A program made the position numbers and the translations under genes. Below are positions 18,716 to 30,772 of a stretch of DNA of 64,000 bases, in pieces; within the stretch, counting starts at the first letter, position 1, and every line of letters starts with the position of its first letter. The notes beneath the pieces are model-generated. The model had not been told where the DNA came from. It did not search any database and saw nothing but the letters and a program-made list of their open reading frames with translations. This stretch comes from Eledone cirrhosa (taxonomy: Eukaryota): assembly GCA_964016885.1 (NCBI GenBank), contig OZ024743.1, positions 30,876,001-30,940,000 of the forward strand, written 5' to 3'.

Positions 18716-19700
18716 AAATTGCATGTTTGAAGAATTATTAGATAAAATATACCCAATCTTTCCTCACCCTAGACCGTACAAATCAACTAGATAAATAATC
18801 ATTTAAAAGGAGCTAAAAGTTTAAAATGTAACTTCGAAGAAACAATATACAAATGATACAGACTATTTTCCGCGAGGAACAGTCAGATAAAATTTATCAA
18901 GTCTTTCATCTTATTCCATACTAATTAACTAGACAAATAATCAATTAAACGGAGCTAAGTCTCAAATATAAGTTAGAAGAAAAAATGTATATAAACTTTA
19001 CCAAAATTCCTCTAGTCCCGTGTATCGATAGTTTCGCTCATACTTCGTGGACATCTCCAAACTTAATATACTCCCGTTCGGTAGAGTAAATATTAGGCAG
19101 TATCTGACTGCTCATTCTAGCAGCCAGCCTACCTGCCACCTTCTAATTTGACCGCTCTGCCACGTGATGATTATTAGCCATTTTGAATTCATAACTGGCG
19201 GCGATCACTGTAGAATTTTAGTCCAAACTTGAGGGAGTTTCTTGATAAGCCCTAAGCCACATATATCATACCTAAATCGGACATATCCACAAAGTACGAG
19301 CGAAACTATCGATAGCCGGGACTAGAGGAATTTTGGTAAAGTTTATTTCCATGTTTTCTTCTAACTTATTTTTTAGACTTAACTCCGTTTAATTCATTTT
19401 TTGTCAAGTTAATTTCTACGGGCTAAGAGGAAAGACTGGATACATTTTATCTGACTATTCCTCGCGCAAAATAGTCTGTATCATTCGTCTATTATTTCTT
19501 CGAAGTTACATTTTAAACATATAGCTGCGTTTAAATGAGTATTTATCTAGTTGATTTCTACGAGCTATGGTAACAAAAGATTGGGTGTATTTTATCTAAT
19601 AATTCTTCAAACTTGAAATCTTACATATAGCCCTCATTAATAATGATTTGCATAATAAAATGTTTCATTGTGCCACACCGTGAAAGGTAGCCACACTCAT
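18716..19700. mobile_element. Old non-coding fold-back element (arms about 18716-19050 and 19280-19620) with a decayed HHR and a right-side tail
   Basis: tttgaagaattattagataaaata.acccaatcttt is inverted at the other end, and each arm has an internal tandem duplication. 19237-19322 reads gtttc TTGATAA gc...gc GAAAC tatcgata GCC gggac. Confidence 0.75.
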
Positions 19701-19793
19701 ATATGTGACTGTGACTATGTTTAAATATATGTCTAAATATATACATATATCCCTATGAATTTGTTTATATATATATATATATATATATATATA

Positions 19794-20418
19794 TAATACA
19801 TTATGAAGAGAGAAGAAACATTAGATATAATTAGTAATAAGATATATCATACCCAAACTGCTTCTATAGTCCCCGACTACGTAGTTTCGTGGCATATTAT
19901 GCAAAAACACAACATCATAGAGATATAGAGTTTTTGTGAGGTTCTGCCGATTTATCCAGAGTATACCTCATTAAGAATTTTAAAACCGTCTGTAATGCGC
20001 GAAATAGAATCTCGAAAAGGCGGAAGGGGAGACGATCACGTGATACAGCGGTCAAGAAACAGAGCTATATCACATGATTGACTCCCCCTCCGCCTTTTCG
20101 AGATTCTATCTCGCGCATCACAGACGTATTTTGAAACCCTTAGTGAGGTATCCTCTTGATAAGTCAGCAGAACCTCACACAAACTCTATATCTCTATTAT
20201 GTAGTGTTTTTGTATAATATGCCATGAAACTACGTAGTCGGGGACTATAGAAGCAGTTTGGGTATGATATATCTTATTACTAATTATATCTAATATTTCT
20301 TTTCTCTTCATAATGTATTATATAGCTCTGATACTGAATCAATCTAATCCGTTCGGATTGGTTTGTCCCAGTTATTCATAGAGCAACATCGGTTGACGTT
20401 GGTGCCACTAACTCAGGG
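19794..20418. mobile_element. Non-coding fold-back element (palindrome 19794-20323) with tail 20325-20418
   Basis: Arms taatacattatgaagaga... and ...tctcttcataatgtatta are inverse over about 255 bp with scattered mismatches, in a (TA)n context. Confidence 0.9.
20151..20244 (+). ncRNA. Hammerhead ribozyme motif (U3-A8 variant, long stem II)
   Basis: tcctc TTGATAA g...[about 60 nt]...GAAAC tacgta GTC gggga. Stem I tcctc/gggga, stem III palindrome ACTACGTAGT. A mutated mirror copy lies at about 19870-19963 on the - strand. Confidence 0.6.
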
Positions 20419-20662
20419 ATATATGTGGATATATTCATGTGTATGTATGTGTCCGCATGCATCTGTGTGTTTCTCTATATATTGTATATATATATATATA
20501 TATATAAATATATATATATATATATATATATATATATATATATATATATATATATATATATATATATATAACGAAGGAAATGTGGTAAGGTACCAGGTGG
20601 ACCATAACGCACCAAAGTACTCAATACTTGAGGTAGTAGAGTGGGTAATAGGAACCAGTAAG

Positions 20663-20756
20663 ACCCCGACAGCTGAGCTCAAGCCGTTTCGACGGCTAAT
20701 TCTGGACTAAACGAAAATTTATCCTGGTATTTAAATAGCCGATCTTCTCAAGGGGT
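20663..20756 (-). ncRNA. Hammerhead ribozyme motif (U3-A8 variant, long stem II)
   Basis: Mirror copy of 24516-24609. Confidence 0.75.
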
Positions 20757-21854
20757 AATTCCATATATGGTCAAAGTGATTGTCAAAAATCAGTAGTAAT
20801 TCTGTGGTTGCAAATTAGTAGGGGAGATGGTGGCTAAACCTGCCAGTAGGAGAAAGAGGGGAGGGGGTGGAGTAGACCCAATCAAGCGTTGGTAGTGCCA
20901 GCTACAGCTGGTCATGAGGTCAAAGAAGATACAGGGGGAGGGGGAGGAAGTCGGAACGGTAGGTAGAACAATGGGGGGTAGAAATAGGAAAGAAAAAATA
21001 CTGAGAGTGAAGAAAAGCAAATAAGTGTAAAGAAAAAAGTAAAGTAAATTAAATTCTACGACCTAGGTGTCAGGCTATTGTTAGGCTAGAATAAAATAAA
21101 GAAAGAAAGAAAGAAGTAAATAAATAAATAAATAAATAAATAACGAAATAAGTAAAAGAACTAGGTGGGACGAAATAGGCAAGGACCCTTTTAAGAGGTA
21201 TAAGTACGTAAATGATACGGTGACGGGTCAACAAAAGGGGCCAAAATACTAAAGAGACTACCACGAAATAAACAATAAAGGCTTCCATCCCGGGCCAGCA
21301 ACGACCCAGTGCAGCAAAGTGAACTTGTACGAGATAATAATTCTGAGTCCCGAGAAAAATATATACTAATGCTAACTCTAAAAGATCTAAAACAAGCTAC
21401 ATGAAGGTTCGTACGAAATAAAGGTAGAATACGGAGAAATAAATTCAGAATCCACCCCGCCCAGAAGAAAAGCGAAGCAAGAAATACTGAAACGAAAAAA
21501 TAAGGCATAAGTGCCACTAAGAAATATAGAGGGCACAGAGAATAGTGGGAGCGGTCGGAAAAAGGGGGCAAGTATCCGGGGTCTAAGCCAACTGCTATAA
21601 AGGGCGGAGTCCGCCAAATCTATCATAGACTAGAGGAGGGGGTGGTGGGGGTACTAAGGCTACATGGGGCCAAAGGGCAGCCTCGGGTGGGCGAGAAAAG
21701 ACGCTGACAAAGGAGAAGAGCTGGGGTAGAAGGACAAAGGAGAGAGGGGGGAAGGAAATAAAGGAAGCGATAAAAGAATACAAAGAAGATCTTACGTCTT
21801 CCTTGGCAAGCAGGGGTTACCCATTGCAAAATCGGCAAGTGGGGTGTTATAGCC

Positions 21855-29071: not shown

Positions 29072-29425
29072 AGTTTTGCAAGGTTTTTGATATGAATGAA
29101 ATCGTGTGTCGAGATAAATATATAAACAGACTAAATAAAGATAGCGTAGAAAATACAATGAAACGGGAGGAAACAATAGCACCACTGACGATGTTGCAGA
29201 TGTGCAACGAAAGAACTTTGATAAACTATATATATGTGTTTGTGTCTATATTGTATCTATATTTTTGACCGTTGGTCTGTCAATGGCATCATTGAGGCCC
29301 GAATAAATTAAATTACCGATATAAAAGACACAGAAGCGAAAAGCGAAAACCAACGAAACAGTGAGTGTGTTCTGTTATTAATTGTGGCAATATTACTCAA
29401 ATATGACCCTCCCCAAGTATAACAA
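29072..29425 (+). mobile_element. Minimal PLE insertion: 40-bp tail joined directly to an inverted terminal repeat with an HHR (29181-29222)
   Basis: 29072-29111 matches the tail at 38299-38335, and 29112-29425 matches 39313-39628. The HHR reads acca CTGACGA t gttgca gatg tgcaac GAAAG aa CTT tgat. Confidence 0.85.
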
Positions 29426-29509
29426 TATATATATATATATATATATATATATGAAATAATTAAGTCAAATATGTAAAACTTGGCTTCGTTTATTATAAAT
29501 TATAGATAC

Positions 29510-29564
29510 ACTGATATATATATTTCGGTGACAGCCATCATTGACTCTGACCTCTTCAGGCAGT
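29510..29564 (-). ncRNA. Hammerhead ribozyme motif
   Basis: actgc CTGAAGA ggtcagag...ctgtcacc GAAA tatatata tcagt, with one mismatch in stem I. Confidence 0.7.
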
Positions 29565-29780
29565 CCGAATTGGTGTGGGAAAGACCGGTACACATGCTGT
29601 TGAAGTGTGTTTAACTCCGTCAATACATAGATATGTCCAGCTCCTGGTTGTGTTCTTATTCCTCTGATTCCAGTTGCTCAGAGAAATAACAACACAGCCA
29701 GGAGCTGGACATATTGATGTATTGACGGAGTAAAACACACTTTAACAACATGTGTACCTGTCTTTCCCACAGCAATTCGG

Positions 29781-29835
29781 ACTGCCTGAAGAGGTCACAG
29801 CCAATGATGACTGTCACCGAAATATATATAGCAGT
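29781..29835 (+). ncRNA. Hammerhead ribozyme motif (canonical core)
   Basis: actgc CTGAAGA ggtcacag...ctgtcacc GAAA tatata TA gcagt. Stem I actgc/gcagt, and stem III is itself (AT)4. Confidence 0.85.
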
Positions 29836-30772
29836 ATAGCTATAATTTATAATAAATGAAGCTATATTTTACATATTTGACCTAATTATTTTACATTACT
29901 CCGGAGTAAACAAACCAAGCTGCGTACGTTGTCGAGTGCTCTAATCTGCATACTGAGGTGTCGGTAAACAACCAACATATACTCAATATATATATATATA
30001 TATATATATATATATATATATATATATATATATATATATATGTGTGTGTGTGTGTGTGTGTGTGTGTAATGGTTATCAACGAAGTATATATTACGATGAG
30101 TATGAATAAAAGAAGTTCATTTTAACGTGATGATTTACACTTCTCTTCTTGTTTATATATATATATATATACATATATACATATATATATATATATATAT
30201 ATATATATATATATATATATATATATATATATATATATATATATATATATATATATATATATACATATCTTTATATATATATATACTATTAAGTATGTCC
30301 TCTTTCTATTAGTTTCGTCTTAGAGGCTAGGTATCCTCCTATGGAAAAATACCAGAATTTCATCCCATATATCACTTAACTTCTATCACATTGTTTCACG
30401 TTTTGTCCCATCCTTTCCGACGCGAATACTGCCTAATTCATATTCGGGCATTTATTGGCTATTCGCCTGGTGATACGATTAAAATCCATGAATTGCACGT
30501 ATGCAGGCATGTTAGATCATGAATCCATTATGCACGCACATACACACACACTCACACACATACACAGACACATGTACACACACACACACACACACGCACA
30601 CACACACACACACATACACACACGCACATATTGTTAATGATGTATGTGTCTGTGTATATGCGTTTTATGTCTGTGCGGCTGTGGTTGTATATGTATATTT
30701 ATGTTTACATTTTTGTGTGAATATGTATGCGTATGTATATATAGAAACATCTATCTATTTTTACATGATATA

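Follow-up and report, generated by a model that had tools for sequence, protein, structure and literature searches.

The window analysed here, a stretch of 64,000 nt from Eledone cirrhosa (contig OZ024743.1 of assembly GCA_964016885.1, positions 30,876,001 to 30,940,000 of the forward strand), contains three short fold-back elements, A, B and C, which were located by self-comparison of the window. The inverted arms of A (18709-19058 and 19279-19629) are 87% identical and those of the inverted repeats of B (19790-20324) and C (29454-29891) are each 89% identical, while the full elements extend over 18707-19761, 19790-20485 and 29454-29987, respectively (Table 1). An initial annotation had described ORF-free fold-backs seated in (TA)n, and indeed the longest open reading frames (ORFs) starting with ATG encode 41, 47 and 31 amino acids in A, B and C, and (TA)n lies on both sides of each element. 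Target-site duplications are hard to call in such flanks, as is also noted for Penelope-like elements (PLEs) in Craig 2021 (PMC8557442). The one-sided tails that had been reported are present in all three elements, although A and B, and with them their tails, reach further than had been described. It was also proposed that the palindromes constitute a new class of orientation-independent retroelement. We show here that this does not stand; in our assessment the probability is about 0.75 that each fold-back is a one-off insertion product of a Penelope-like, Hydra-type reverse transcriptase (RT), double-primed and joined at its far ends, and that the palindromes themselves are not mobile units.

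A and B each represent part of a closed non-coding monomer, of about 710 and 598 nt respectively, that occurs in head-to-tail tandems. For each family 30 loci were fetched from the best-scoring 40, which were the ones scored among at least 2,558 candidate loci for A and at least 1,862 for B. Complete monomers lie between tail-to-head joints in eight loci of either family, measuring about 707-720 nt in A (longest ATG ORF 59 amino acids) and 598 nt in B (49 amino acids). Arrays reach at most about two units in the loci seen, and copies that run past monomer position 1 re-enter the tail, never coding DNA, in agreement with the earlier view of A and B as non-coding and non-autonomous. The B monomer and its tail-to-head joint are covered by contigs of three runs (kind unrecorded, one sample), which are possibly the source of the assembly and are not counted as evidence. 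Both families have two fixed 3' ends, an internal site (monomer position 587 in A and 434 in B) and the tail end, all of them TA-like, and the two families match at 76% over 50 nt of sequence at the internal site. Two pooled searches gave 46 rows for B, in which the window copy appears twice, leaving 45 unique elements; of these, 32 have ends at about 434 and about 598 and none has two tail ends; these queries held the tail, so elements ending twice at the internal site lay outside the sampling and could not be recovered.

The junctions between the two arms differ from copy to copy. Inverted-to-forward joints were found in 41 of the 45 B elements and all 41 are distinct, with overlaps of 1-15 bp (n=20), blunt joins (n=5) or filler of 1-11 bp (n=16); no A centre is repeated among 30 elements. 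Thus, a different centre in each copy, the outcome that the initial annotation had itself named as refuting its proposal, is what both families display. Searches with sequence spanning the joint of the window B element and of two other B copies identified no second copy of any joint among the 40 matches scored for each, and the nearest matches had joints several bases off.

C represents what remains of a coding Hydra-like Penelope element after 5' truncation, which upholds the earlier description of hammerhead-bearing, Penelope-linked, retro-derived structures that resemble miniature inverted-repeat transposable elements (MITEs). The family was sampled both with the whole palindrome as query (the best 40 of at least 3,442 candidate loci) and with a tail-anchored query (29 other loci). 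The former set is selected for palindromes, a bias that the tail-anchored search removes, and the latter comprises five full palindromes, seven copies with partial inverted arms, ten single arms and seven copies that extend further 5'. Two tail-anchored copies cross a 3' untranslated region (UTR) of about 1.25 kb into GIY-YIG sequence, and one of them, L121, also enters RT coding DNA; L121 and L122 are 89% identical over 2.3 kb and the RT match is 51% over 203 amino acids (E 8e-71). The linker, endonuclease (EN) motifs and (TA)n targeting of the Hydra clade are defined in Craig 2021 (PMC8557442). These features (DKT, a CxCX5C linker, CxxC-E-N-CxH in the EN and (TA)n targets) are found in the C parent and its window neighbours, and the linker and EN motifs point to a place for both within this clade. 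The motifs are present in window ORFs, while CxCX5C was read by eye from the DNA of locus L111, and the EN of L121 keeps CxxC, E and N with C-R-Y instead of CxH. Pfam returned RT and GIY-YIG matches only below its cutoff, on two of seven proteins.

The forward arms of C begin at a preferred place, with 17 of 29 starting no more than 20 bp from the self-complementary TCATATGA (about position 7957 of L121, unit position 917-919; 29665 in the window), and it is this concentration that clusters the C centres. The hot spot could represent an internal transcription start, giving an RNA of about 335 nt that resembles a short interspersed element, a stop of the RT at a hairpin, or a good annealing site. 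An upstream CUGAGGA motif, considered as its source, was dropped by eye as it has no stems.

The proposed route to these structures is as follows. At a nicked (TA)n target, each strand would prime a cDNA, one starting at the distal tail site of the RNA and the other at the fixed internal site; both would run toward the 5' end of the RNA, and their far ends would then be joined head to head. The tail, corresponding to the interval that separates the two start sites, would be found on one side only. If twin priming of this kind took place, the ribozymes should face outward, the tail should be confined to one side, each site should supply one end, and the centres should be unique and rich in microhomology; all of this is seen. 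It is from this anatomy that we infer double priming, end joining and the use of one RNA or source locus for both arms. The biochemistry reported in Frangieh 2024 (PMC11167929) provides a parallel: both strands of the target are cut and extended by a PLE protein, which initiates reverse transcription at two sites inside the RNA, one at each limit of the tail. A, B and C resemble this system, Poseidon_Ac, in both respects and in the AT-rich target, but differ in that the start site described there is not homologous to the target, whereas the A and B ends are TA-like; what the genomic data add is that one site is used per insertion side. More tentatively, a Penelope RT dimer might bind a single RNA at two fixed positions, each serving one target strand; every insertion would then be a twin-primed hairpin whose tail length follows from the site spacing. 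Thousands of circular retrozymes of the A and B type, with U3:A8 cores and long stems II, might exploit this, and completed palindromes might occasionally be transcribed across their centre and re-inserted, an event hinted at by the duplicated joint of the insertion at 13953-18676.

The variants carried by the arms argue for a common origin of the two arms of each copy. In A, arms of one copy share 3.97 variants per 100 bp, compared with 0.99, 1.01 and 1.07 for left-right, left-left and right-right pairs between copies (5 copies); the corresponding values are 0.81 versus 0.13, 0.16 and 0.17 in B (16 copies) and 1.28 versus 0.21, 0.22 and 0.21 in C (28 copies). Sharing within a copy is therefore four to six times that between copies, while the three between-copy classes are equal in all families. 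Left arms are not specially like other left arms, and thus no left/right asymmetry has been inherited, unlike what copying of whole palindromes would leave. Consistent with one template or locus for both arms in most copies, a C subfamily marker is present in both arms of 5 of 26 palindromes and in one arm of 2, when about 1.4 and about 9 would be expected if the arms were independent. This marker is common to three of the seven long coding-type copies and 6-7 of the 26 palindromes. Palindromic, solo and coding copies are also intermixed in a tree of 48 C forward arms, in which the palindromic label changes 16 times against a shuffled mean of 16.1; the tree has low support (one starred branch), and the script assigned the solo label to four palindromes whose left ends are damaged or tailed (L066, L068, L070 and L081). 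Two tail variants confined to palindromic C copies (5 and 7 of 26) were set aside, as the comparison set had been chosen by identity to the window tail, one variant is a CpG change and the centres of the carriers differ.

It could be argued that the second arm arises when a single cDNA folds back and primes its own copying, which would likewise yield one-off products and has been proposed for inverted joints in Arkhipova 2013 (PMC3846280). Self-priming would account for the private variants common to both arms of a copy, for C centres on a self-complementary 8-mer and for locus L017, which is symmetric at 282/282, while the inversion joint duplicated in both arms of a neighbouring insertion (13953-18676) fits DNA-templated copying. 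Several B inverted arms, however, reach further 5' than the start of the tailed arm of the same element (monomer position 157 versus 175 in the window, 5 versus 157 and 103 versus 324), and the tailed cDNA could not have been the source of this extra sequence unless a later deletion had occurred. In addition, the outer end of the inverted arm is fixed at a site where forward copies also end. We thus consider self-priming rather unlikely.

Several observations count against one-off, twin-primed insertion, and some of these would suit a palindrome that is itself mobile, transcribed whole from either strand and re-inserted by a Penelope RT. All of the 40 best whole-C matches cover most of the element, two classes of C joint recur (6 and 4, together 10 of 28 palindromes), and the insertion at 13953-18676 has the same inversion joint in both arms. 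This insertion was apparently copied through an inversion that already existed, and its duplicated joint is not accounted for by two independent cDNAs made from a plain RNA. As only the best 40 matches per family were scored, a rare propagated palindrome could also have been missed. Furthermore, of 28 C palindromes only L066 breaks the pattern of one end per site, being tailed on both sides, and 4-5 copies of C have a mosaic of subfamily markers; arm-to-arm conversion after insertion could have added to the sharing within copies; the A end classes are too noisy for counting because the A tail is TA-rich; and no coding parent of A or B was identified in about 75 loci, nor any match to the one other Hydra-like family compared.

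The evidence for a mobile palindrome is, however, countered at several points. The whole-C set was selected for palindromes, which make up 5 of the 29 loci in the tail-anchored sample. The recurring C joints, read by eye, are mirror-image 18-bp deletions between 3-bp repeats, and each class mixes copies with and without the subfamily marker, indicating that the classes recur independently; the centres of C thus track microhomology rather than descent. All sampled A and B centres differ, the asymmetry that propagation would pass on is absent, and most arms in the window have damaged or truncated ribozymes. A self-propagating palindrome, recognizable by a shared centre together with inherited asymmetry, was thus not observed, and we regard this explanation as improbable. 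With respect to the earlier suggestion that either strand can act as template, the joint at 13953-18676 offers one case, whereas A, B and C offer none. This joint fits either re-copying of a read-through transcript from an earlier inverted insertion or copying of one arm from the other as DNA. It was present at no other locus among the 40 matches scored of 1,323 candidates, which makes copying across the centre at most occasional.

The initial annotation had also placed outward-pointing hammerheads on opposite strands of each element. A descriptor in which the 3:8 pair could be of any Watson-Crick type and stem II could be long gave five matches in the window and 0-1 in each of ten dinucleotide shuffles, while a canonical CUGANGA descriptor missed the A and B motifs. 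A scan of the window with Rfam reported no hammerhead in A, B or C and a sub-threshold one at 39766-39810, its other matches being miRNA families driven by microsatellites. A and B have the core UUGAUAA (U3:A8), with a stem II domain of 53-63 nt and a palindromic stem III of 8-10 nt. Each core position is kept in 25-29 of 29 forward arms in A, 26-28 of 28 in B and 50-53 of 53 in C, with the stems paired, and in 6 of 29 A arms an A-U pair of the palindromic stem III is replaced by G-C through a double change. The minimum-energy fold is a three-way junction for the A consensus and for the related motif of the coding element at 20570-24624 (core UUGAGAA, U3:A8, long stem II); it is not for the B and C copies that were folded. 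The family consensus motifs of all three are sound and may be active ribozymes. In the window itself, however, only two to three of the six arms hold an intact motif, the right arms of B and C among them: A-left has lost the 5' half of the core, the cut site of A-right is changed from GUC to GCC, B-left has U4 changed to G and the first stem-I pair of C-left is broken. An alternative core inside the long stem II of B was dropped by eye for lack of stems.

Hammerhead-like sequences extend beyond these three families. The 0.68 Mb of DNA fetched contains at least seven multi-copy hammerhead families, several with stem II domains of 30-60 nt, and these cluster in (TA)n, where Penelope insertions are nested side by side. 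A high-copy family (window 18585-18635; L126-L158; at least 2,323 candidates) has a palindromic stem III and, in the copies whose core was read, the core CCGAAGA (U4 to C), whose activity is doubtful or variant.

Long ORF-free inverted arms with TA on both flanks are also what DNA-transposon MITEs with TA target duplications would show. The tail outside the repeat on one side, the 5'-truncated single-arm copies, the tandem monomers and the hammerheads are not; terminal inverted repeats at both ends and a uniform length are lacking in the A, B and C loci, and for C the RT and GIY-YIG parent refutes such an origin, making this a very remote prospect. Palindromes in long-read assemblies are sometimes artefactual. 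Fold-back errors in sequencing or assembly are nevertheless barely credible here, given that the arms are only 87-89% alike, that each arm has its own mutations and that the outer ends are fixed family-wide.

A, B and C are thus real structures of a known kind, miniature Penelope-type inverted insertions, of which C derives from a coding element of Hydra-like type, and A and B from monomers that resemble retrozymes. Craig 2021 (PMC8557442) reports inverted 5'-truncated copies, one-sided tails, the (TA)n-targeting Hydra clade and head-to-tail derivatives of PLEs that are not autonomous. Variable 5' truncation, partial tandems, an inverted upstream copy and a one-sided tail, described for PLE insertions there and in Arkhipova 2013 (PMC3846280), are all found in the A, B and C loci, as are a hammerhead in the terminal repeat and (TA)n targets as in the Hydra clade. 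In contrast with those insertions, the tails here are about 95-160 bp rather than 30-40 bp, the elements are too short for coding DNA, and A and B are parentless in the loci sampled. Cervera and de la Pena 2014 (PMC4209133) already describes dual hammerheads on opposite strands, 100-700 bp apart, which it attributes to truncated PLEs, as well as Cercyon PLEs with a U3-A8 variant of the core; here U3:A8 is joined with the long stem II domain and the palindromic stem III, a combination not encountered in the literature consulted. Our literature search on U3-A8 with a long stem II, Penelope twin priming and palindromic non-autonomous PLEs revealed nothing beyond the works cited; the variant may already be listed in their supplements, notably among the ribozymes tabulated by Craig 2021. 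Inverted pseudo-long terminal repeats (pLTRs) and tails are named as curation pitfalls in PMC8969392.

Non-LTR retrozymes (PMC7229834; bioRxiv 10.64898/2026.07.22.740005) are non-coding head-to-tail monomers of about 300 bp, each with a type I hammerhead, and have been suggested to derive from PLEs as non-autonomous elements. A and B resemble retrozymes in that they form non-coding head-to-tail monomers with one type I hammerhead per unit, but depart from the canonical ribozyme (U3:A8 core, 53-63 nt stem II domain) and size (598-710 nt), form only short arrays and have PLE-type inverted and tailed anatomy. Their mobilisation probably took place in trans, with tandem or circular RNA as the source; such RNA circles, and a Penelope-like identity for the enzyme that moves A and B, would be consistent with this organization.

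What is left of interest is the rule of one end per priming site and the joint shared by both arms of 13953-18676. With this rule, the unexplained steps that follow the start of reverse transcription in the Penelope cycle could be cast as a testable twin-priming model, for which short natural RNAs would be available as substrates. In the E. cirrhosa genome, thousands of sequences that look like MITEs are likely to be Penelope products that would be misannotated. As neither Rfam nor short-stem descriptors pick up the ribozyme variant of A and B, families of this kind are probably undercounted.

Table 1. Elements A, B and C and neighbouring insertions, in window coordinates
Feature	Position	Strand	Description
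A inverted arm	18707..19058	-	Monomer 237-587; outer end is the internal end site; 3' hammerhead half only
A forward arm	19066..19761	+	Monomer 5-707 of the ~710-nt non-coding monomer
A hammerhead, U3:A8 type I	19236..19323	+	Core 19242; predicted cut after 19317; U16.1 mutated in window copy
A one-sided tail	19630..19761	+	From internal site to tail end
B inverted arm	19790..20067	-	Monomer 157-434; hammerhead core 19958 with U4 to G
B forward arm	20064..20485	+	Monomer 175-598 of the ~598-nt non-coding monomer; 4-bp overlap at centre
B hammerhead, U3:A8 type I	20151..20244	+	63-nt stem II domain; predicted cut after 20239
B one-sided tail	20325..20485	+	~160 bp
C inverted arm	29454..29667	-	Hammerhead core 29559; first stem-I pair broken
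C forward arm and tail	29665..29987	+	Last ~330-335 bp of the 3' UTR of a Hydra-like RT and GIY-YIG element
C minimal type I hammerhead	29781..29835	+	Core CUGAAGA; palindromic stem III; predicted cut after 29830
C one-sided tail	29892..29987	+	~95 bp
Comparator, 4-kb coding (RT, GIY-YIG) insertion	20570..24624		Two arms, one tail; U3:A8 long-stem-II hammerhead in both arms
Comparator, Hydra-like insertion	13953..18676		One end per site; same inversion joint in both arms
Earlier intermediate	8997..9794		Short fold-back with GIY-YIG remnant; other family
Earlier intermediate	29114..29428	+	Single arm of the 38342-39632 family; adjoins C through (TA)n
Earlier intermediate	38342..39632		95% arms around GIY-YIG remnant; CX4CxxC linker; other family

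Four inverted structures of 4-5.5 kb surround RT or GIY-YIG remnants in the window. The coding insertion at 20570-24624 is young (arms 98.8% identical) and its short 3' fragments flank many other loci; with a stem III that is stable in the monomer, its hammerheads are good candidates for a cleavage assay. When the insertion at 13953-18676 was mapped on an intact 4.15-kb tandem unit (L156), one end fell at each site. The idea that 14104-18676 represents a family with an antisense ribozyme was rejected, as ORF and ribozyme lie on one strand in the intact tandem unit. The three structures previously listed as intermediates are real fold-backs or single arms that belong to other families and have only simple repeats in common with A, B and C; the CX4CxxC linker of the EN remnant at 38342-39632 marks it, by motif, as a PLE type other than that of C. 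Further multi-kilobase inverted PLE insertions are seen at 57957-63455 and 39853-44457, and the RT at 59392-63077 is of the YLDD type, compared with YRDD in Hydra-like elements. An abundant dispersed repeat of about 190 bp, often in short tandems, occurs at 43-406, 10131-10587, 30769-30963, 32079-32268, 33427-33827, 46354-46546, 54457-54642 and 56659-57286.

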